From a virus: a stretch of DNA of 64,000 bases. Below the pieces are notes generated by a model. That model did not search any database and was not told where the DNA came from. It worked only from the letters and a program-made list of their open reading frames with translations. Position 1 is the first letter of the stretch. Every line of letters begins with the position of its first letter. The stretch covers positions 14,259 through 78,258 of IMG/VR virus record IMGVR_UViG_3300036820_000014; one strand, written 5' to 3'. Positions 7,236 to 21,068 of this stretch are shown here, piece after piece. The position numbers and the translations under genes were made by a program.

Positions 7236-8324
7236 TCAGATCGGCTCCGCACCCAGCCCTCCGACACATCCAGGAGACAACCAAGCCCGCTCTCGGCCTC
7301 GGTTGGCTGAATTCCTTGTCTCTCCGGATGAGTTGCCCATCGCTCGACGAGCTCGCCACCACACGGTCCGCCAACCCGGCAAGTCAAAATCCTCGTTGTA
7401 TCCCGCCACCACGATCCTCATCCCAGGAAGTGCTTCATTCTCTCGGCACCAACCCTGGATGGCATCGTGAAGATCATCGTCGACCTCGTGCGCATAAACC
7501 TCGGATCGCTCATTGAGCCGGTATGGGGGATCGAGGAATACGCCCATGCTGTTGGCACCACTCATCGCTCCCGTCGTAACGATGCGTGACCAGTTCCCCG
7601 ACGCACATCGGACGCTTCGCAGACGGGCCGACAGATGACCGAACCAGTCTTGGAGGTCTTCGTAGCTCCGCACTGTTGACTTACTGGCGTTCTGGGCATT
7701 GACCCGAGGGATGTGCCGGGTGACACCCTGGGCGCTCGTCATGTGAGGCCGTTTGCGATCGACCCCATTGGCTTCACTGATGCGAGGGATTTGCTTTCTA
7801 AATCCTTTCGCCTCAGAGCGCCGACTCTTTTGGACTCGTCCATCGACTACGCGCCACGGGCCAGTTCCGGAACACCAACCTGAGCCAATCCAATTCGATA
7901 GGCCCCACGCCCACCACCCGGCGATCTTTGCATCGCAGTAGTCCGGGTCGGCCTCGAGTCGGCTGGCTAACTCCGAGCCGTGGTTAACCAACCAGAGATG
8001 TCGTGCGGTGAGGTCCAGCTCGTGGACGTGGCTGTCGGCCCAGCGAGCGACCTCATCGGGGTCGGACTTGATCGCGCGCCAGAAGTTGGCGACATATCCA
8101 TCCTTGTCATTAACCAATTCCCGACGTCGAGCACATTCTTGGATCTCGAGCGGTCGCCTGAGCAGGACCGCCAGTGATCCGCCAAATGGCTCTGCGAAGA
8201 CGTCCGGATTGCCGAGAGCCCTCCACACAAGAGGAGCGAGTTGGCTCTTTCCGCCGAAGTAGGGAAAGGGTGCCGCCAGCCGAGGGTCTATTGCTTCAGC
8301 CACTCGGTCCCACACTTCGGGCAC
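7236..8324 (-). CDS. DNA adenine methyltransferase (Dam/D12-like)
   Basis: PFPYFGGKS, EPFGGS, LVND, FLDPPY. Confidence 0.9.
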   Translation of the reverse strand: MPEVWDRVAEAIDPRLAAPFPYFGGKSQLAPLVWRALGNPDVFAEPFGGSLAVLLRRPLEIQECARRRELVNDKDGYVANFWRAIKSDPDEVARWADSHVHELDLTARHLWLVNHGSELASRLEADPDYCDAKIAGWWAWGLSNWIGSGWCSGTGPWRVVDGRVQKSRRSEAKGFRKQIPRISEANGVDRKRPHMTSAQGVTRHIPRVNAQNASKSTVRSYEDLQDWFGHLSARLRSVRCASGNWSRIVTTGAMSGANSMGVFLDPPYRLNERSEVYAHEVDDDLHDAIQGWCRENEALPGMRIVVAGYNEDFDLPGWRTVWWRARRAMGNSSGETRNSANRGRERAWLSPGCVGGLGAEPI

Positions 8325-8900: not shown

Positions 8901-9275
8901 TTACGGCCGGGCGAGCCATCCCGCTTCTCTTGCTTCGATCGGATGCTGGTTATGGATCCAGTCATGGCACTCGAGGCAGATGTGCAAGAGGTTGGTCAGG
9001 AGATTCTTGCCCCCGTCAGAGACGGGAAGGACGTGATGGCGGTGCTCGCCCCAGTAGTGGCACTTGGCCGAGACGAGGATCTCGCACACACCGTGCGACC
9101 TCTCGAGCAACGCCGGCGTGATGGCGTCCAACTCGTCGAGGAAGGCCCGTTTCTCCGGACTGATCCGACGCAGCCCTTTCCGACGCGGCCGAAGCGGAGC
9201 GCGCTTTAAGCGGGTTTCCGAACGCTTCATCTCGGTCCGTTTCATCTGAACCGGATGCCGGCTTTCACCGCTCAT
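8901..9275 (-). CDS. HNH endonuclease
   Basis: HHVLPVSDGGKN..TNL..ICLECHDWIH. Confidence 0.85.
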   Translation of the reverse strand: MSGESRHPVQMKRTEMKRSETRLKRAPLRPRRKGLRRISPEKRAFLDELDAITPALLERSHGVCEILVSAKCHYWGEHRHHVLPVSDGGKNLLTNLLHICLECHDWIHNQHPIEAREAGWLARP

Positions 9276-10239: not shown

Positions 10240-10668
10240 TCACCATCGTCGTCGTTCAGGGTCATCTTCCTCGCCGACTGGGTCGACCCCTACCAACCTG
10301 AACTGGCCTTTCGCTTCTTGCGTATCGCGCTCGCGCTTGTCTGCCACCTTGCCAACCATCTTGTCGAGCCGCGTGCCGGTGTCTTTGCGATCATCGATCA
10401 TCACGATCACCGCATCAAACTCCTCGATCTGATGTATTCCAAGCAGCAAGCCGTCCTCTTTCGAGTAGACGTTGGCATAGCTGGTCTTGCGCTGGCGGAT
10501 CCGCATCAGACAGTCCTCGTAGCCGTCTGTCTGGAAGACGTGCGGTGCTATGTCCACCGAGTCCTCCAGCCCGTTGCCCGTCTTCTTGATGACGATCGAC
10601 TGGCCGAGAATCGGTAGCCCGTTGTGCTCGCCGAGGTCGTTGTCTTCGTCAGTGTTTGCCACGGTCAT
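10240..10668 (-). CDS. hypothetical protein
   Basis: ATGA-coupled to the C5 MTase; GAGAGGA RBS. Confidence 0.65.
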   Translation of the reverse strand: MTVANTDEDNDLGEHNGLPILGQSIVIKKTGNGLEDSVDIAPHVFQTDGYEDCLMRIRQRKTSYANVYSKEDGLLLGIHQIEEFDAVIVMIDDRKDTGTRLDKMVGKVADKRERDTQEAKGQFRLVGVDPVGEEDDPERRRW

Positions 10669-12386
10669 TTGGTTCCTCTCTGTTGTTGGATCATGCGTCG
10701 GCCTATCCACTCTGCGACCGGAACGCAAACGGCATTGCCGAGCGTGCGGTATCGAGCTGAGTCGTTCAGAGTCGAGGTCCAGTCATCGGGGAATCCCTGG
10801 AGTCGTTCCACCTCCAGGGGCGTTAATCGTCGGACAGCGAGACTCCCCTGTGCTGATTCGTTTTCACCGCTCGTGGATCGCCCCACCGCTTGAACCTCTG
10901 ATAATGCTTGTCGCACAGGCCCAAGCCCTTCTGAGGCTTGCCACATACCGTGCAAAGTGCACGTCCGCAATGCTCCTTCATGTGACAGGAACGACAAATA
11001 CGTATCAAGTTGGTCGGCGAGTTGTTCAGGTGGTCGCCGTCCCGGTGGTGGACGTCCCTCGCTGAGGATCTCCCGCACTTCGAGCATGGTCCCGGTGGAC
11101 AGATGGCCCGCGCTCGTCTGTGCGTTGTGGACCAGTTCGGGGTCTTGCTCAGGTATCGCCCAGTGAACCCCATCGCCATGCACTTCTGATGGCAGAACTT
11201 CCGGCGTTCGAAGTGGAACAAGGACTCCAAGACACCATTCGACAAACGCTTCCTCTCCAACCTCTTCCCGCAGGACTCGCAGTACCGCTCCGGATCTGGC
11301 TTCCTCGGCATCGGCACGCGAATCACTGTAACCACCGGGTGAGGCTAGGACAGCAGTCGCGGTCCTAGCCGTGTGCCCGATCGCATCGAGGGTGTCGGTG
11401 CGGTCAGTCTCTTCCCATCGCTCGCAATCATCGGAGTCATGCGCCCGTTGCGCCTTGCGGTAGGCCACGACACGAACGCCTCGCTCGGTCGTCTTTGCTC
11501 CGTCGGTAGCCGAGATGGTCGGTGCCAGGTCGGTCGGAGTGGCCACCAGATCGGCTCCTTGCCCTGACTCTGGGTAGATCGAGAAGGCGACCAGGTGATG
11601 GGGTTCTTTTGCCTCATGGGCCGCAATTGGCGCGATCTGCTCCACCTCGTCCCACCATTCGTGGCCCGTCTCGGACGACACCGATACGCGCTCGTGCACG
11701 GCTACTCGGGCGCTGATGGCTGCTCCAGATTGGCCGACTGCTCCAGCGCTTGCCGCAAGCGTCCCGGCAACTCGCGACCCCGTCTCCCTGCTCGGCGGAG
11801 AATCCCCATCGCAGCTCTCGGGCTCAAAAAGTACCGAGAGTGCACCGGCTCTGTCTCCAAGACATCCGACAATGAAGACACGGCGGCGGCGCTGGGCCAC
11901 TCCGAAGAATTGAGCGTCAAGCACCCGGTAGGCCCACCCATACCCGAGTTCGGCCAGGGTTCCGAGAACCGTTGCCATGTCAGCTCCAGGACAGCATCCG
12001 GCACACTCGGCGTCATCGCATCCGGTGGGCTTGTGGCCCGACGAAAGCAGTCCAGGGACGTTCTCGATGAGAACCCAACGGGGAGCAAGCGCCTCACTGA
12101 CACGTACGAACTCGGTGAAAAGTCCGGATCGCTCGCCAGCCAGTCCCTTACGACGTCCAGCCACACTGACGTCTTGGCACGGGAATCCTCCGCAGAGAAC
12201 ATCGACTCTTGGGGCATCGGGACCTATCTCTTTCACATCATCGAAGCGGAGCATCTCCGGCCAGTGGAACTCCAGAACTTTGCGCGCGTCGGGATCGATC
12301 TCGCACTGCCAGGCACACGTCATCCCCGCTCGTTCGAGCCCCAGTCCTATGCCTTCGATCCCACTGAAGAGGGAACCGAATCTCAC
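10665..12386 (-). CDS. DNA (cytosine-5) methyltransferase with large internal insertion
   Basis: SLFSGIEG, GGFPCQDVS, ENVPG, QRRRRVF, RRLTPLEVERLQGFPD, GNAV. Confidence 0.95.
   Translation of the reverse strand: MRFGSLFSGIEGIGLGLERAGMTCAWQCEIDPDARKVLEFHWPEMLRFDDVKEIGPDAPRVDVLCGGFPCQDVSVAGRRKGLAGERSGLFTEFVRVSEALAPRWVLIENVPGLLSSGHKPTGCDDAECAGCCPGADMATVLGTLAELGYGWAYRVLDAQFFGVAQRRRRVFIVGCLGDRAGALSVLFEPESCDGDSPPSRETGSRVAGTLAASAGAVGQSGAAISARVAVHERVSVSSETGHEWWDEVEQIAPIAAHEAKEPHHLVAFSIYPESGQGADLVATPTDLAPTISATDGAKTTERGVRVVAYRKAQRAHDSDDCERWEETDRTDTLDAIGHTARTATAVLASPGGYSDSRADAEEARSGAVLRVLREEVGEEAFVEWCLGVLVPLRTPEVLPSEVHGDGVHWAIPEQDPELVHNAQTSAGHLSTGTMLEVREILSEGRPPPGRRPPEQLADQLDTYLSFLSHEGALRTCTLHGMWQASEGLGPVRQALSEVQAVGRSTSGENESAQGSLAVRRLTPLEVERLQGFPDDWTSTLNDSARYRTLGNAVCVPVAEWIGRRMIQQQRGTK
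10823..11311 (-). CDS. HNH endonuclease nested in the +1 frame of the C5 MTase
   Basis: CSKCG...DVHHRDGDHLNNSPTNL..ICRSCHMKEH plus N- and C-terminal zinc fingers (CESC, CTVC..GLCDKHY). Confidence 0.8.
   Translation of the reverse strand: MPRKPDPERYCESCGKRLERKRLSNGVLESLFHFERRKFCHQKCMAMGFTGRYLSKTPNWSTTHRRARAICPPGPCSKCGRSSARDVHHRDGDHLNNSPTNLIRICRSCHMKEHCGRALCTVCGKPQKGLGLCDKHYQRFKRWGDPRAVKTNQHRGVSLSDD
11702..12217 (-). CDS. M.EcoHK31I-beta-like methyltransferase subunit nested in the +1 frame
   Basis: WPNSGM...LTLNSSEWPS...SSLSDVLE...RYFLSPRA.MGILRRA.RRGR.LP..L..AL. Confidence 0.75.
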   Translation of the reverse strand: MPQESMFSAEDSRAKTSVWLDVVRDWLASDPDFSPSSYVSVRRLLPVGFSSRTSLDCFRRATSPPDAMTPSVPDAVLELTWQRFSEPWPNSGMGGPTGCLTLNSSEWPSAAAVSSLSDVLETEPVHSRYFLSPRAAMGILRRAGRRGRELPGRLRQALEQSANLEQPSAPE

Positions 12387-12616
12387 GCGTGGGCCCTGCC
12401 CCTGCAGGTGGCGAAGTGAGCGAAGCGACGTGGGCCTTCATGGACCTCGTCCTTTTTCAGGATCCTCACCATTGGCACATCGGAGTCTGGATCGATCATC
12501 ACGACCTTGGCCTTGTCGCCTTTGTCTGGCCACGGGTTGACGGGCATGCGCTTGCCCTTCTCAGTCACACACCACACGATCGCCACGCCGCAACGATTGC
12601 ATTTGGTTGTCTTCAC
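12383..12616 (-). CDS. conserved small phage protein
   Basis: CNRCG..IVW..T.KGKRMPVN...HFATC. Confidence 0.75.
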   Translation of the reverse strand: MKTTKCNRCGVAIVWCVTEKGKRMPVNPWPDKGDKAKVVMIDPDSDVPMVRILKKDEVHEGPRRFAHFATCRGRAHA

Positions 12617-13935
12617 GCCGTCTCCTCCTCTACGCCACGTCCTAACTCGAGCAACCGGCCTGCGGGAGACGCTGGCGTCGTGTCCTCGACAGACAGGAAC
12701 ATCCCAACCCGCTCGCGTGCCAGGTCGGCGTTCCGCCCATCGATGTCAATCCCCACGGCGGTACGACCGTGACCAGTGGCCACCATGAGCGTCGTGCCAC
12801 TGCCGGCGAATGGATCCAAGACGCACCCAGGGCGGTAGTCGTCGTGAGAGCAGGCTGTCCAACCGAGGGTGGTGGCGACTCGGTCCATGGTTGGCTTTCC
12901 AGCTGCACCCGTTCCGTTCGTGCGTCCATCGGGTTCTTTCAGGTCACGTCGCTGCCCAGTGGTCCCACCTGACCCGCGGACGTAAGAGACATCGACCATC
13001 CGCCTCGACGGCTCCCCACACACCCGACAAACACGTTCCGGGCACATCGACTTGATAAAGGGCACACACAGGTCGGCCGGCCAGGTCGCATAGTGCGATC
13101 CCTTGTAGGGCGATGTCGGGATCACCAGGTAGGACGGGAACTCCTGGTCTTCGTCCATCTCGATCCAGTCGAGGGGTGGCGCGCCCGCCTCGTTGATCGG
13201 TGAATTGCGAAATCGCTCTCCCTTGTCGTTCAGCGACACGTCCTTGCGCTCGTGGCGGTTGTCATCGGGGAACTTGTGCGGCGTCCGCACCGCGTCCTGG
13301 TCGTAGTAACGCGTCCGGCTCTTGCACGCCACGGTCAGATAGCTCGTAGCGGGTCTGAACTTGTCCCCCAGCGCGCCGACGGGTGGGTTCGGACGATTCC
13401 ACGCCACCAGATTCCTGATGCGCCAGGGGTCGATGGTGCGCTCTGGACGGAGCAGGTTGCGCCCGTAGGCGAGCGACCAGGCGAAGAGGGTGGGGATGCC
13501 GGTGAGGGACTTGTCAAGGGGCCAGCCGAGGCGAGCCTTCGTCATTCGCCCCGGGCCCGTGCGCTCCATCGTGGACTCGACGCGGCGGGCATAGGCGCTG
13601 CCCGTGAACGCGGGCTGAGCGGCTCGCAGGCCGTTGTCGGTGTAGTCCCCGCCCGCCCCGCCGCTTCCGCTGTAGGTGTCGCCGAGCTCGAACACCAGCG
13701 AACCGTGCGGCGCGAGCACGCGGTCACAGGCCTCCACCACGTCGAGCAAGTCGTCGAGGAAGCCAGCCGGCGTCGGCTCCGATCCGATCTCCTTGGATTT
13801 CTCGGGATGATCGGGTGGTAGGTAACTCCGCAGAGCAAGAAACGGAGGAGAACTCAGTATCAGGTCGACGGATTCGTCTGGCAACGAAGCCAGGCCATCG
13901 AGGACGTCGCCGACGATGAACCGCGCGGTGCTCAC
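12613..13935 (-). CDS. DNA N4-cytosine/N6-adenine methyltransferase (beta class)
   Basis: SSPPF (motif IV), HYATWP, VLDPFAGSGTT. Confidence 0.9.
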   Translation of the reverse strand: MSTARFIVGDVLDGLASLPDESVDLILSSPPFLALRSYLPPDHPEKSKEIGSEPTPAGFLDDLLDVVEACDRVLAPHGSLVFELGDTYSGSGGAGGDYTDNGLRAAQPAFTGSAYARRVESTMERTGPGRMTKARLGWPLDKSLTGIPTLFAWSLAYGRNLLRPERTIDPWRIRNLVAWNRPNPPVGALGDKFRPATSYLTVACKSRTRYYDQDAVRTPHKFPDDNRHERKDVSLNDKGERFRNSPINEAGAPPLDWIEMDEDQEFPSYLVIPTSPYKGSHYATWPADLCVPFIKSMCPERVCRVCGEPSRRMVDVSYVRGSGGTTGQRRDLKEPDGRTNGTGAAGKPTMDRVATTLGWTACSHDDYRPGCVLDPFAGSGTTLMVATGHGRTAVGIDIDGRNADLARERVGMFLSVEDTTPASPAGRLLELGRGVEEETA

Positions 13936-15713
13936 CCAGCATCCAAGAACAAGACATCGCAGGCCACCACATAGCCCTTGTCGGGATAGTCGATGAGACC
14001 CAGGGTCCTCAGACGGCCGAGGATGTTTCCGAAGGTGCCTCCGATATTGGGTCCGACCGAGTACCCCGCGATCTCGCCGGCGTGCTGCTTGGTGAGTGCG
14101 TCAGGGTAGGCCGCGATGATCCCCGAGAGCACCCGGCCTTCCGGATCGGTGAGCTTAGAGAGGACCTCACCCTGCAACCCCTCGCTCGTGCGCTCGATGT
14201 CCGGCGCGACAGCGAGATGGCGCCCCTCGTCCGTGAGCCGCACCCGTCCGGATACCGGATAGTCGAGGAGCCCAGCGCCTCGAAGCTGACCCAGGAGATT
14301 GCCGAACGTGCCGCCCACACTCTTTCCGACCCGATAGCCGGCGATGAAACCCGTCTGGATCTTCGTGGGTTGATCGAACCCGACCTCGCGGAGCCAGGCG
14401 AGGGCATCCAAGATCCTGTGCTGCGGCTTGGTGAGGTTGTAGAGGTCGGTACCGGAGACGGGCTTAGGCGCTCTGACGGAGTCGTGGTCAGAGCCGTGGC
14501 GCACCGATTCGCCGCGCGCCTTGGCGGGAGTGGCCACGCGCTGGTTGAGTTTGCGCTCGAACTCGATCACATTGCCGCGCTGAGTCGTCTCCCATCTCAG
14601 TCGCTCCTGGACCTCGCCGAGTAACCCGCTCCAAGGCTCAAGCGCTTCTTCGAGCCGGATGACAAGCGATTCATCGATGACTGGAACCTCTATGCGCTCG
14701 ATGATGCGCTCGGGCTCGGGTAGGACGATCGTTCCAGCCTTGACCAACTCGGCTGTGAGCTCGGCGATGCGGCGCTTGAGCTCCTTCGGGTCATCGGCCT
14801 TGGCGCGCTCGATCGTGTCGGCCATCTGTTCCTTGATCGCAGCCAGGTCGACGTCGGCCAGCTTCACTGGCGGACGAGTGGCCTTCCTGCCGACGAGTGG
14901 CGTCGCACCCGAGTCGAAGGTACGCCGCCGGCGGAAGCGGACCCGATCGATCGCCTTCAGCCAGCTCGGCGAGATTACGAAGGACTCTCCGTCGTCCAGC
15001 GTCGGCAGCTCGCGGACGAGGTCGGCACCGCTCGCGTGGTAGTCACACCATCCGAGGATCTTCTTGCGGTCAGGAGGCCCGGTCGTCCGCATGGCAAAGA
15101 GCGTGCCCACCTGAGTGAGCACGTCGTTGTTGAGCGATGCTGACCGTTGGGTTATTAGCGTGGCTCCGATGCCTCGGAATCGGCCACGCTTGACGATCTG
15201 CTCAAACGCTCCGACGACCTCGGCCGCTTCGCCTCGGACCATCTGAGGGATGTACTCGTCGGCCTCTTCGCAGAACAGGTGAAGCGGTTCGCGGTTGAAC
15301 CGGTAGAGCCGCTTGGCGAAGTCCCGGAGGAACCGGCGCTGGTCGGCTCTCGTCATCTCCGACACATCGAGCACGCACGTGAGACGGTGCTCTACGACAA
15401 GATCGGCGATGAGGTTGCCAGATGACGGCTCGAGCGGGACGTCGCCGTGCAGGCCGCCGAACACGACGATCGACAGGCCAGCCCCAGAGCCATCGCCCGA
15501 TGACCTGAGGCCCCACCAATCACCCTTCGGATCCACCGCCACCCAGGGAAGCTCATGGTCGTACATCTCCTCAGCGAGGACAGCGGCGGCGTTCGACTTG
15601 CCGGCACCTTTCACCGCCAAGATCCCGAAGGTCTCGGTCACTCCTTGCAGCGGGATCTTGAACGTCGCGCCAGCTTCGGACTTACCGAGATGGAGGTACT
15701 GGTCCCTACTCAC
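13932..15713 (-). CDS. HerA/FtsK-like ATPase (DUF87/DUF853-like) with tandem C-terminal winged helices
   Basis: AVKGAGKS Walker A, VDPKGDWWG, LFCEEAD, KRGRFRGIG...TQR. Confidence 0.8.
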   Translation of the reverse strand: MSRDQYLHLGKSEAGATFKIPLQGVTETFGILAVKGAGKSNAAAVLAEEMYDHELPWVAVDPKGDWWGLRSSGDGSGAGLSIVVFGGLHGDVPLEPSSGNLIADLVVEHRLTCVLDVSEMTRADQRRFLRDFAKRLYRFNREPLHLFCEEADEYIPQMVRGEAAEVVGAFEQIVKRGRFRGIGATLITQRSASLNNDVLTQVGTLFAMRTTGPPDRKKILGWCDYHASGADLVRELPTLDDGESFVISPSWLKAIDRVRFRRRRTFDSGATPLVGRKATRPPVKLADVDLAAIKEQMADTIERAKADDPKELKRRIAELTAELVKAGTIVLPEPERIIERIEVPVIDESLVIRLEEALEPWSGLLGEVQERLRWETTQRGNVIEFERKLNQRVATPAKARGESVRHGSDHDSVRAPKPVSGTDLYNLTKPQHRILDALAWLREVGFDQPTKIQTGFIAGYRVGKSVGGTFGNLLGQLRGAGLLDYPVSGRVRLTDEGRHLAVAPDIERTSEGLQGEVLSKLTDPEGRVLSGIIAAYPDALTKQHAGEIAGYSVGPNIGGTFGNILGRLRTLGLIDYPDKGYVVACDVLFLDAG

Positions 15714-18221: not shown

Positions 18222-19903
18222 TCTGGGTCCCTCGCTCCGGCTGCCTCACGGGCAAGCAGCGTGATTAGTTGGTGGCGACGGACGACTTCGTCCTCCTGGT
18301 GAGGTATGGCGCCCCGCTCCAAGAGCGAGTTAATCACTCCGTCGTTATCGATGAACGAGACGAACTCGAGCAGCACATCGGCCATGGCGCTTGGTAATCC
18401 CTCGGGCATGCCGGCTCCGGGGTCATCGGCTGACGCCACATCCTTCGGGCACAGAGGCGGGTGAGGAAGGAAGTCGCCGGGCTCGTGGTCGGCAATCGTG
18501 TGGCCTTCGATCCGCTCTCCACACCAGCACCAGACGGGTCGACTTGGCGGCGTGTCTACGGCATGGGGATCGGTCGGAGGAGCCTCGTCTTCAGCCGATG
18601 CCTCAGGTTGCTCCTGAGCGCCAGCGGGCTCGTCGGTAGGTGGTTCCGGAACCGGTTTGGTACCGGTTCCCAGCCCGATCCAAAAAGCGAGACCTCGTGC
18701 GAGGTCTGCGAGCACGGCTGTACCCGCTGCGGACTGGTCCCAGCCCCGAGACTTGGCCTGGGCCTGGATCCCTCGGATGAGCGCCGTAGCCACCCTCACC
18801 TGTGGGCCCGTCGTGAGATCCCGAGGGCTCGCCGGTAGCTTCTGTCCCGATACCTGGGCGTTGTTCCACCGGTCCCTCAGATCCTTACGACCATCTGGGT
18901 CGAGGGCCATCGCAGCGATCTGGAGCTCGACGAGCGCGTGGGGATCGGCCGGCTCGTCGGTCGACTGTGAACCAGAGTGTGAAGTGCCGCCCTTCGAGTC
19001 GAAGCCCTCAGGGAGTTCGAGCGTGTCCAGGTCGATGGGATCCCCGTTCTGATCCGTCAGTGCGCCAAGCTCGTCAGGGTTGTAGAGCCCGAGCGCCGCC
19101 TCCGGGAAGTAGACGTCGGAGCACCGCTGAGCGGCTCGCCACCAGAGCATGTCCCTCGGGTACGTCTGATAGTTGTTCTTGCACCGCATCCGGACGTGGT
19201 CCTGGTTGTAGTCGTGCTTGGCGTTCCATCTCCGGCAATGCTCGGCGTGGTCATCGGGCTTGCAGTCATCGCACACCAGGTCGGCGCGCTGAGCGTCCTC
19301 CCAGGTGAAAGAGATCGGGTCGACCGGCTTACCATCGACTGGATCCAACAGAGCCTTTCCGTCAGGACCGACGGCATAGGCCTGAGAGGCGAAGATGCTG
19401 TTGCCTCGTCCCGGACGGATCGACCCGGAGCCGAGCTGACGGAGGCGGGCGTTCAGGAGCTTCGGAGCGATCGAGGGCTTGCCATCGATCACGTAGATGA
19501 GGTTCACCGCTGCGGTCAGCGGGACACCCAGATCCCGGCCGGTCAGAAGGATCACCAGCATGTCGTAGGGCTTGCCTCGAAGCGCCTTCGGTGCCAACTC
19601 GGACGACGACAGCATCTTCGCCATGAGACATAGCTGGAGGAACTCGTCACGCCCGGGGATCCCCGGCTGGTCGATCGCATACTCAGCCGCCCTTGTGATG
19701 GCGACCTCGGCGGCCGTGGGCTCTTTGCGATTGCGGACCTCGAGGGCCACCTCATCGACGAGTACGGCTTCCGGCTGAGGCGATTCAGCGGTGGCGGGTT
19801 TGCCGCGCTCTTCTTCGGGAACCTCCGAAGTCTCACCCTCTGGTTCTGGTTGAGGGCCGAGGTCTTTTAACGCCTTGGCCCGTATGGCATCGGTGATGGT
19901 CAT
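18218..19903 (-). CDS. single-strand annealing recombinase (RecT-like)
   Basis: GRDLGVP...IYVIDGKP...YQTYPRDMLWWRA...FPEAALGLY..DEL. Confidence 0.75.
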   Translation of the reverse strand: MTITDAIRAKALKDLGPQPEPEGETSEVPEEERGKPATAESPQPEAVLVDEVALEVRNRKEPTAAEVAITRAAEYAIDQPGIPGRDEFLQLCLMAKMLSSSELAPKALRGKPYDMLVILLTGRDLGVPLTAAVNLIYVIDGKPSIAPKLLNARLRQLGSGSIRPGRGNSIFASQAYAVGPDGKALLDPVDGKPVDPISFTWEDAQRADLVCDDCKPDDHAEHCRRWNAKHDYNQDHVRMRCKNNYQTYPRDMLWWRAAQRCSDVYFPEAALGLYNPDELGALTDQNGDPIDLDTLELPEGFDSKGGTSHSGSQSTDEPADPHALVELQIAAMALDPDGRKDLRDRWNNAQVSGQKLPASPRDLTTGPQVRVATALIRGIQAQAKSRGWDQSAAGTAVLADLARGLAFWIGLGTGTKPVPEPPTDEPAGAQEQPEASAEDEAPPTDPHAVDTPPSRPVWCWCGERIEGHTIADHEPGDFLPHPPLCPKDVASADDPGAGMPEGLPSAMADVLLEFVSFIDNDGVINSLLERGAIPHQEDEVVRRHQLITLLAREAAGARDPE

Positions 19904-20535
19904 TTGCGGGTCTCCTTTTCCAGCTCGTAGCTGAACCTGTCCTCGGCCGGTTTGAAGAAGGTCACGCCAGGAACGGGCACCGGCTCGGCTCCCTCCTCGG
20001 CTGGCGGCAAGAGGACAGGGACGGCTTTCCCTTTCTCGCCGCCCTCGGTGGCCTCAGCGGCCATCTTGTCGGCCACTCGTGGCAGCTTCCCAAGCGCCTG
20101 GCGGTTGACATCGACGTTCACCCGTACCAACTCGTCATGGCCCGAAGTCAGCGCCCAGGCCTTGAACGCGTCCTCATCGGCCACAACGACCCGGCCGGGG
20201 AGTGCCTTCATCCGGACGGTGCCGTGAGGCAGCGACAGGGTCTTCACCTTGGCTTGCTTCATCTCAGGGCGGGCATAGGCCTCGACGATCGCTTCGATCC
20301 GTCTGAGTTGCGCCTCGGCCGCTTTGGTGCGGTCGGCCAGCCAGCCGTCCAGACGCTCACGTTCGGCGTCGTAGACGACCTTGACATCTCGGAGATCGGC
20401 CTGGAGCCGCATGCCCTTTCGGAGCAGCCAGTCCAGCTGCTCTCGGCTATTGGGCGGTGGGACATCCTCGCCCTCGGGAAGCGGATCCCCGATGAATTCA
20501 TCGAGGTCGCGCTCCCAGAAACCAGAGTCGCTCAC
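19900..20535 (-). CDS. Mu Gam-like / host-nuclease inhibitor protein
   Basis: Coiled coil followed by KTLSLPHGTV.M; upstream of SSAP; AAGGAGG RBS. Confidence 0.7.
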   Translation of the reverse strand: MSDSGFWERDLDEFIGDPLPEGEDVPPPNSREQLDWLLRKGMRLQADLRDVKVVYDAERERLDGWLADRTKAAEAQLRRIEAIVEAYARPEMKQAKVKTLSLPHGTVRMKALPGRVVVADEDAFKAWALTSGHDELVRVNVDVNRQALGKLPRVADKMAAEATEGGEKGKAVPVLLPPAEEGAEPVPVPGVTFFKPAEDRFSYELEKETRK

Positions 20536-20564
20536 GGTCCTCCTTGTCTGATGGGTTGGAGTTA

Positions 20565-20581
20565 CTAAAACGGAACTATAG
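20565..20581. promoter_or_regulatory. 17-bp operator copy 2 / minus-strand -10 TATAGT
   Basis: CTAAAA-CGGAA-CTATAG upstream of the gam-like gene. Confidence 0.7.
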
Positions 20582-20696
20582 CGACGGGTTGCGACATCGG
20601 CCCAGACGCGGCGAAGGCGGAGCACTGAGGCCCCGCCTTCTCGCCCGCACTGAATCTCCAACCCAAAATTGGGAACCAGTGGCGAAGTGGTGAAAG

Positions 20697-21068
20697 TTAG
20701 TCGCGTGCGGCCGTGGATGCCCGTTGGACAGCGGCCAGAAAAGCCGCCGCCGCTGGGGAATAGTCGCCGCTGACCAGATGGATGGGACGGGGCACTACAC
20801 CGAAGGGCCAGCCCAGGCGCTCGAACTGGATCACCACACCCATGAGGGCTGAGAGCATCCGACTCTCGGCATGGCTGAGGGTCGGCAATCCGTGGAGTTG
20901 CCACTCGGCGGCACGCTCCCATGCTCGCTGGAACGTGAACACATCGAGGTGGGTGAGTGCCTCGAAAGCATCACTGCCTCGGCGCTCACATTCTCGGCAT
21001 CCATCCACAAGGATCTGGCCCGGGTCGTAACCGGGCAGCGATGAGTGAGCAGCGTGTGTGCTCATCAT
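20697..21068 (-). CDS. hypothetical protein
   Basis: 123-aa ORF, DGCREC. Confidence 0.55.
   Translation of the reverse strand: MMSTHAAHSSLPGYDPGQILVDGCRECERRGSDAFEALTHLDVFTFQRAWERAAEWQLHGLPTLSHAESRMLSALMGVVIQFERLGWPFGVVPRPIHLVSGDYSPAAAAFLAAVQRASTAARD

Follow-up and report, generated by a model that had tools for sequence, protein, structure and literature searches.

A probable splicing-free homing element: an HNH endonuclease gene nested out of frame in a phage C5 methyltransferase gene

A C5 cytosine DNA methyltransferase (methylase) gene of a soil virus contains, immediately before the codons for its conserved motif IX, an in-frame insert of about 0.5 kb whose +1 frame holds an HNH endonuclease gene. 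Comparison of this insert with related loci indicates that it is probably a homing element that does without splicing and is instead read through by ribosomes translating the host gene. The methylase gene lies in a stretch of 64,000 nucleotides (nt) that is referred to here as the window, spanning positions 14,259 to 78,258 of IMG/VR virus record IMGVR_UViG_3300036820_000014. The record is complete at 78,258 bp and carries terminal repeats, the GC content of the window is approximately 62%, and near-identical sequence was found in three soil metagenome studies. A preliminary description, based on the letters of the window alone, had proposed a splicing-free homing element that persists by keeping the host frame open. 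The proposal is supported by the avoidance of stop codons in the host frame, by purifying selection acting solely on the HNH frame, by the polyphyletic distribution of the insert and by a pair of near-identical inserts in divergent methylase genes, as laid out below.

Results

An open methylase gene with an HNH endonuclease gene nested in its +1 frame

The methylase is encoded by a single open reading frame (ORF) belonging to PF00145, in which the invariant alignment columns of motifs I (FSGIEG), IV (GFPCQ, including the Cys of PCQ), VI (ENV), VIII (QRRRRVFIVG), IX (VRRLTPLEVERLQGFP) and X (GNAV) are all present and occur in this order. The preliminary description had located an HNH nuclease at 10823-11335 within this uninterrupted ORF, and a nested ORF with exactly these limits is found on the same strand, encoding 170 amino acids from a GTG start codon and lying in the +1 frame, since (12386-11335) mod 3 = 1. 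The extent of the ORF was therefore correctly given, but the upstream GTG at 11335 is not the start conserved in the family. That start is the ATG at 11311 (MPRKPDPERYC), located about 28 nt into the insert, and ATG is the start codon of the HNH gene in 81 of 83 distinct loci. The nested ORF carries the HNH signature DVHHRDGDHLNNSPTNLIRICRSCHMKEH plus three Cys4-type zinc modules, and an alignment of 15 sequences shows V87, H88, H89, N96, N97, N101, L102, C106, C109, H110 and H114 to be invariant. Its product is matched by PHROG HNH families, the best match being phrog_1271 with an E-value of 9.5e-12. An AlphaFold (AF2) model built on 15 homologs has a mean predicted local distance difference test score (pLDDT) of 83.6, and the top matches of its residues 55-117 in VIA-align are HNH nucleases, all of them weak (Z < 8): 4h9d (5.1), 5h0o (4.8) and I-HmuI, 1u3e (4.4). 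A Foldseek search against the PDB using the multi-domain HNH model yielded nothing at E ≤ 1e-3. On the basis of its sequence, the nested ORF appears to encode an intact zinc-finger HNH endonuclease.

At its 3' end, the HNH ORF extends 19 nt past the insert and into the host LAVRRLT codons, where its TAA stop codon straddles two host codons, taking its first two bases from the end of the Leu codon TTA and its third from the start of the following Thr codon. The motif IX Leu codon is TTR (TTA or TTG) in all 13 alleles with an HNH ending at this point, versus 17 of 55 insert-free alleles. In seven loci the HNH is lengthened at its C terminus by an additional Cys/His module (C..C...C..H) (L015, L018-L020, L136, L137 and L139), and in these the HNH ORF ends before or beyond motif IX, not in the RRLT codons.

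Boundaries of the insert and its reading in the methylase frame

The preliminary description had noted some 500 bp of sequence unlike a methylase and without frame-0 stop codons just before RRLTP, and had suggested aligning the gene with alleles lacking the insert in order to define its boundaries. Such alleles exist and form the majority (78 of the 80 viral C5 methylase loci most similar to that of the window), including the closest of these loci (L056, 62% identical in the N-domain). The nearest insert-free allele, P0002, is 402 amino acids long and 61% identical to the window methylase. In a BLASTP comparison, window residues 1-349 align to P0002 residues 1-347 and window residues 515-566 to P0002 residues 347-398. 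P0002 therefore joins residues 349 and 515 directly, which yields an insert of 166 codons at approximately 10842-11339, the 5' junction being defined at the protein level by this alignment. The insertion site follows the ...TATAV of the variable target-recognition region and precedes the motif IX sequence VRRLTP, and the length of the insert is a multiple of three. When read in the methylase frame, the insert encodes a peptide that has no match among PHROG families and that a model of the full-length protein renders as helices of low confidence (pLDDT 25-63), which makes it look like low-confidence helical filler.

The absence of intein termini and intron features stated in the preliminary description was borne out by searches of Rfam and Pfam and by inspection of the junction residues. 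No intron match was obtained in Rfam at E ≤ 1 across 10400-12600, with the proviso that an intron core might be too divergent for Rfam, and Pfam detects no Hint or intein domain in the methylase ORF. The junction residues are Ser|Pro ... Gly-Ser|Leu (bars marking the junctions), and not the Cys/Ser ... His-Asn followed by Cys/Ser/Thr of inteins.

The methylase frame is kept open but only the HNH frame is conserved

An open second frame could arise by chance in GC-rich DNA. With the HNH protein and local codon usage taken as given, the methylase frame would be free of stop codons by chance with a probability of 4e-4 in the window, and a permutation of synonymous codons gives P = 0.003. None of the 20 loci tested reaches a probability of 2e-3, and the value falls to 2e-11 in the Staphylococcus phage CUB-EPI_14 (gp45, L001:1848-3653), a phage of S. 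epidermidis that harbors the same element at a GC content of 33%, with a predicted methylase of 601 and a predicted HNH of 160 amino acids. The third frame of the insert, meanwhile, is closed in the window and in every locus. A chance ORF was rejected on the grounds of these codon-resampling tests and of the Staphylococcus copy, and stop codons in the methylase frame are strongly selected against.

Selection in both frames, another check put forward in the preliminary description, was compared over 91 pairs. Amino-acid identity across the insert is 0.56 in the HNH frame but drops to 0.36 in the methylase frame, close to the 0.35 of the third frame. The ratio of nonsynonymous to synonymous change (pN/pS) is 0.44 in the HNH frame, with the methylase frame (1.06) again nearly level with the closed third frame (1.10), and substitutions at HNH codon positions 1, 2 and 3 (4961, 4779 and 7687, respectively) are in excess at third positions. 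These patterns indicate that, of the three frames of the insert, purifying selection acts on that of the HNH alone, and that the methylase-frame peptide behaves like untranslated sequence in all respects except for having no stop codons. Downstream of the insert, the methylase motifs of insert-bearing alleles present a pN/pS of 0.31, computed on chosen conserved blocks, which points to purifying selection on the C-terminal methylase motifs in the presence of the insert. Motifs IX and X can be translated in frame only if the ribosome reads through the insert.

Patchy distribution of the element across divergent methylase genes

The same nested arrangement, an open C5 methylase ORF that accommodates an HNH in its +1 frame, was identified in 109 of 110 related loci spanning GC contents of 32-70%. 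It is present in all 30 viral, isolate and metagenome-assembled genome (MAG) loci and in 79 of 80 metagenome loci. The former include every one of the 19 loci from viruses or isolates that were retrieved through their HNH (19/19), L055, and nine MAG loci (9/9), labeled as Dokdonella, Peptococcaceae, Georgfuchsia, Acidobacteriia, Hyphomicrobiales, Verrucomicrobiota, Methylococcaceae, Solibacter and Gastranaerophilales. In the sole exception, L198 (76-552), the HNH is intact, the methylase frame is broken by several stop codons and no motif IX follows; this locus may represent a decayed host gene or a free-standing copy of the HNH.

In a tree of 93 methylase N-domains, inferred from an hmmalign-based alignment, the distribution of the insert requires at least 9 gains or losses, and a single clade of insert-bearing methylases is rejected by the approximately unbiased (AU) test with P = 1.5e-42, so that insert-bearing methylases are polyphyletic. 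In 49 of 55 pairs, the HNH is better conserved than the N-domain of the host. In L006 and L007 the insert DNA is 95-100% identical, although the genes around it are 25-70% identical elsewhere. An identity of about 80% continues for approximately 120 nt downstream of the HNH stop codon, through motif IX, and looks like a co-conversion tract. The element is patchily distributed and has moved between divergent methylase genes. Called homologs of the HNH number more than 230, and NCBI-annotated HNH proteins include ones from Phenylobacterium and Methylorubrum. A megablast search with the window methylase gene against a phage collection returned no match. Two HNH-bearing methylase loci (L227 and L228) were also observed about 72 kb apart on a single 153-kb metagenome contig (Ga0209318_1000051).

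Expression of the nested gene

A Shine-Dalgarno core is found 5-14 nt before the ATG in 46 of 83 distinct loci, versus 11.4 ± 3.0 at random positions of the same genes, and in phage CUB-EPI_14 the HNH ATG is preceded at 7 nt by a perfect GGAGGA. A scan of the window methylase gene for sigma-70 promoters came up empty for the coding strand. The sequencing runs listed as containing the virus include no RNA run. In many loci, stop codons in the HNH frame are located 12-36 nt upstream of the ATG, and their proximity favors ordinary internal initiation over frameshifting or leaderless translation. In the window, such a stop is a TAG (Table 1) that confines any route into the HNH frame by frameshifting to a very short stretch. 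A methylase-HNH fusion generated by frameshifting was judged unlikely, in view of these upstream stops and of the conservation of both the ATG and the Shine-Dalgarno sequence.

Features of the locus and neighboring genes

Table 1. Coordinates of the methylase gene, the insert and the nested HNH gene. Positions are those of the window; each row designates a feature.
Feature	Position	Strand	Details
C5 cytosine DNA methyltransferase (host gene)	10665..12386	minus	573-amino-acid uninterrupted ORF; Pfam PF00145, E 2e-62
In-frame insert	~10842..11339 (boundaries ± 3 nt)	minus	166 codons/498 nt; between variable target-recognition region and motif IX
HNH endonuclease gene (putative)	10823..11311	minus	+1 frame; 162 amino acids; ATG 11311-11309 to TAA 10825-10823
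HNH catalytic core (DVHH...NN...NL...CxxCH...H)	10970..11056	minus	residues 86-114 of the 162-amino-acid protein
TAG stop in HNH frame	11345..11347	minus	36 nt upstream of conserved ATG
Host motif IX codons GTC CGA CGA TTA ACG (V R R L T)	10821..10835	minus	supply last HNH codons and stop
Methylase C-terminal part (motifs IX-X)	10668..10841	minus	83% identical to P0002

Besides the insert, the window methylase harbors a Cys-rich mini-insertion, GHKPTGCDDAECAGCCPGAD, at 11976-12041 on the minus strand (methylase residues ~116-137), between motifs VI and VIII. This mini-insertion is common to P0002 and P0003, is missing from most relatives and may constitute a small zinc-binding loop. A short, low-depth soil contig joins position 11353 to 11564, corresponding to an in-frame deletion of 210 nt (70 codons) that removes 11354-11563, within the target-recognition region just 5' of the insert; this contig stems from a variant or from a related allele. 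The C5 gene is surrounded by a methylase island, encoded entirely on the minus strand (7236-8324, 8901-9275, 12613-13935, 13932-15713 and 19900-20922). Its members are a D12-class N6A methylase (7236-8324), a free-standing HNH (PF01844; 8901-9275), an N4/N6 methylase (12613-13935), a HerA-like helicase and a Mu Gam-like protein. Among related viral C5 methylases, about one third are split within the variable region into two overlapping ORFs in different frames. These split loci (L075, L082, L084, L085, L089, L091-L093, L095, L097, L098, L100, L102, L107, L109, L111-L114, L120-L122, L124-L126 and L133) form clades and resemble gp127/gp128 of phage Omega; they may result from frameshifting, from a further insertion or from a protein that is naturally made of two subunits.

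Discussion

Proposed mechanism

Because the length of the insert is divisible by three and no stop codon interrupts it in the methylase frame, ribosomes starting at the methylase ATG would read through it, and their product would be a methylase with 166 extra, evolutionarily unconstrained residues. The HNH would be made from the same region by ordinary internal initiation at the conserved ATG, with its final codons and its stop codon supplied by the host VRRLT codons. During co-infection, or in a lysogen, the endonuclease would then cut or nick insert-free alleles near the sequence coding for motif IX, and recombinational repair would copy the insert into the cut allele. The insert-bearing methylase is presumed to stay active, and it is for this reason that stop codons in the methylase frame would be selected against.

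Alternative explanations

Several observations weigh against a read-through homing element. The match to Pfam HNH_3 (E 1.2e-3) is under the gathering threshold, and the structural matches of the HNH model are weak (Z ~5). The sampling is biased, in that similarity to the HNH was used to gather loci with the insert and similarity to the methylase to gather those without it, and the insert-bearing methylase might be inactive. With regard to the window copy itself, there is no obvious Shine-Dalgarno sequence before the ATG at 11311. In the three soil DNA runs containing the virus no contig skips the insert in this allele and only its insert-bearing form was seen; this result by itself counts neither way, and the window copy may or may not be active at present. 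The last two observations, together with the fact that the nearest HNH relatives of the window copy are just 65-66% identical, would also fit a fixed or fossil element that arrived by homing and whose window copy is now immobile, its HNH ORF being an intact relic or silent for want of a ribosome-binding site. We deem this unlikely, since the window HNH is full length and keeps every invariant zinc-binding and catalytic residue, which a dead gene in DNA of 62% GC would be expected to lose soon, and since purifying selection is seen on the HNH frame across the family.

The remaining alternatives call for either the removal of the insert or a joint function of the two proteins. HNH genes are frequent passengers of phage group I introns, as discussed in PMC11855218, and some introns are too divergent for covariance models, so that an unrecognized self-splicing intron, or some other form of removal at the RNA level, could carry the HNH ORF and leave a methylase mRNA without the insert. 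A spliced sequence, however, would not need to avoid stop codons, and the host frame is kept free of them under strong selection even at 33% GC. The insert is moreover divisible by three and unmatched in Rfam, and the roughly 28 nt upstream of the ATG, in combination with an ORF that reaches the 3' junction, leave no room for a ribozyme core, making removal from the RNA very improbable. An open host frame is precisely what an intein requires, and inteins do occur in related methylases (P0027; ShiLan gp65). Protein splicing of the 166 residues is nonetheless scarcely credible, because the insert begins with Pro (or Ser) and ends with Gly-Ser before Leu, Pfam finds no intein-related domain, and the methylase-frame peptide is modeled as low-confidence helices and evolves at the pN/pS of an untranslated frame. 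Lastly, the HNH could be a co-opted partner of the methylase, for instance in a one-locus restriction-modification pair or as an anti-host nuclease from which methylation protects. Nuclease and methylase lie on one transcript, and the phage encodes a methylase island (D12, C5 and N4/N6) as well as a free HNH. Yet L006 and L007 carry near-identical HNH inserts in methylases with unrelated recognition regions, so that their specificities cannot be matched, and this, along with the lack of the insert in most close methylase relatives and its polyphyletic distribution, renders co-option highly improbable.

Implications

A read-through homing element thus remains the preferred explanation for the insert. 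On balance we favor the broader view that such elements add a third general strategy to those of introns and inteins by which homing endonucleases can reside in genes, and that the C5 lineage originated independently. If this is true, the C5 lineage is directed at the motif IX codons, the best conserved DNA within the family, and could therefore invade methylases that share as little as 30-50% identity in their catalytic domains, in many bacterial phyla. Its design would be a minimal one, consisting of a Shine-Dalgarno-led ATG about 28 nt into the insert, a borrowed Leu-Thr stop and a filler whose only constraint is to contain no stop codons. The insertion point, in turn, appears to be a site at which C5 methylases tolerate some 170 extra residues. 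The lineage spans soil phages, MAGs of several bacterial phyla and one cultured Staphylococcus phage, CUB-EPI_14, which can be grown and makes the lineage directly testable. Gene callers overlook HNH genes of this kind, or take the methylase for a single long protein containing an "unknown domain".

Comparison with known systems

The preliminary description had likened the element to the insertions of ShiLan type reported in actinobacteriophage methylases. A "ShiLan domain" was described by Gosselin et al. 2023 (PMC9957025), and Arsenault et al. 2025 (PMC11855218) reported that it hides an out-of-frame HNH in the actinobacteriophage methylase ShiLan gp65. As defined in these papers, the domain is hosted by the Dorothy_75/ShiLan_65 methylase family and encodes a 195-amino-acid HNH in the third frame, with a GTG located 18 nt into the insert, for which leaderless initiation was proposed (PMC11855218). 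The likeness holds at the level of the published concept. Both systems present an out-of-frame HNH within an insertion that adds no stop codon to the host methylase ORF, adjoins conserved residues and lacks intron or intein features, both have a patchy, horizontally transferred distribution and an in-frame reading that forms a low-confidence helical segment, and in both the HNH ORF ends in ...TAAC. It does not extend to the family, the host or the frame. In ShiLan (NC_041988.1), gp65 is an N6_N4 methylase (PF01555) with an intein and the hidden HNH of 195 amino acids lies in frame +2, whereas the window element resides in a C5 methylase (PF00145) and encodes a 162-amino-acid HNH in frame +1. 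The two HNH proteins can be aligned over about 50 residues around the catalytic motif, with 34% identity, and ShiLan was not among the best 60 matches listed in a tblastn search of phages with the window HNH (E ≤ 5). A repeat like that of ShiLan, in which the opening 11 residues of the insert resemble the 11 that follow the insertion site, is not present (LASPGGYSDSR versus VRRLTPLEVER). The window lineage also builds its stop from host motif IX codons and commonly has a Shine-Dalgarno-led ATG, neither of which was found in PMC11855218, and it occurs in many bacterial phyla and a Staphylococcus phage, in contrast with the restriction of the ShiLan domain to mycobacteriophages. Given the different host family, site, frame and HNH subfamily, the window element is therefore best regarded as an analog and not as a ShiLan domain.

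Other systems share parts of this strategy. The second published case is Pacc40 gp60, a helicase-methylase of a cluster F1 mycobacteriophage (PMC11855218, section 3.6), in which an out-of-frame nuclease-like ORF likewise lies inside an in-frame methylase insertion. By its description, it differs from the window element in host protein, site and nuclease family, and its authors call the HNH assignment less certain. The C5 methylases of cluster J mycobacteriophages, exemplified by Constella gp104/gp105 (MH399772.1; L004:780-2207, compared with L005, phage Omega), contain a 228-codon in-frame insertion with an out-of-frame HNH coding sequence that is annotated as overlapping in GenBank. They share the C5 host with the window element, but their insertion follows motif VIII, not IX, their HNH lies in frame +2 and is unrelated in sequence, and the host methylase is in addition split into two ORFs. 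The Constella-type insertion is a third lineage with the same strategy. With homing endonucleases that are borne by introns (e.g. I-HmuI, PDB 1U3E) or inteins, or that are free-standing in phages, the window element would have in common the HNH catalytic fold (a weak match, with a Z of 4.4 for I-HmuI), a conserved site in a host gene and spread by gene conversion, giving a patchy distribution. It would differ from them in that harm to the host gene is avoided by an in-frame, stop-free coding insertion, and not by splicing or by an intergenic location.

A search of a literature library found no paper describing the C5 methylase lineage. If the explanation favored here is correct, the ShiLan observation of 2025 is not an oddity of mycobacteriophages, since an unrelated HNH in an unrelated methylase family has arrived at the same trick, and the C5 loci provide quantitative support beyond that of PMC11855218 in the form of selection against stop codons in the host frame, no detectable amino-acid selection on the host-frame peptide and a ribosome-binding site for the hidden gene. 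The out-of-frame, stop-free HNH insertion is, as a concept, already published (2025); the element of the window is a separate and widespread lineage.

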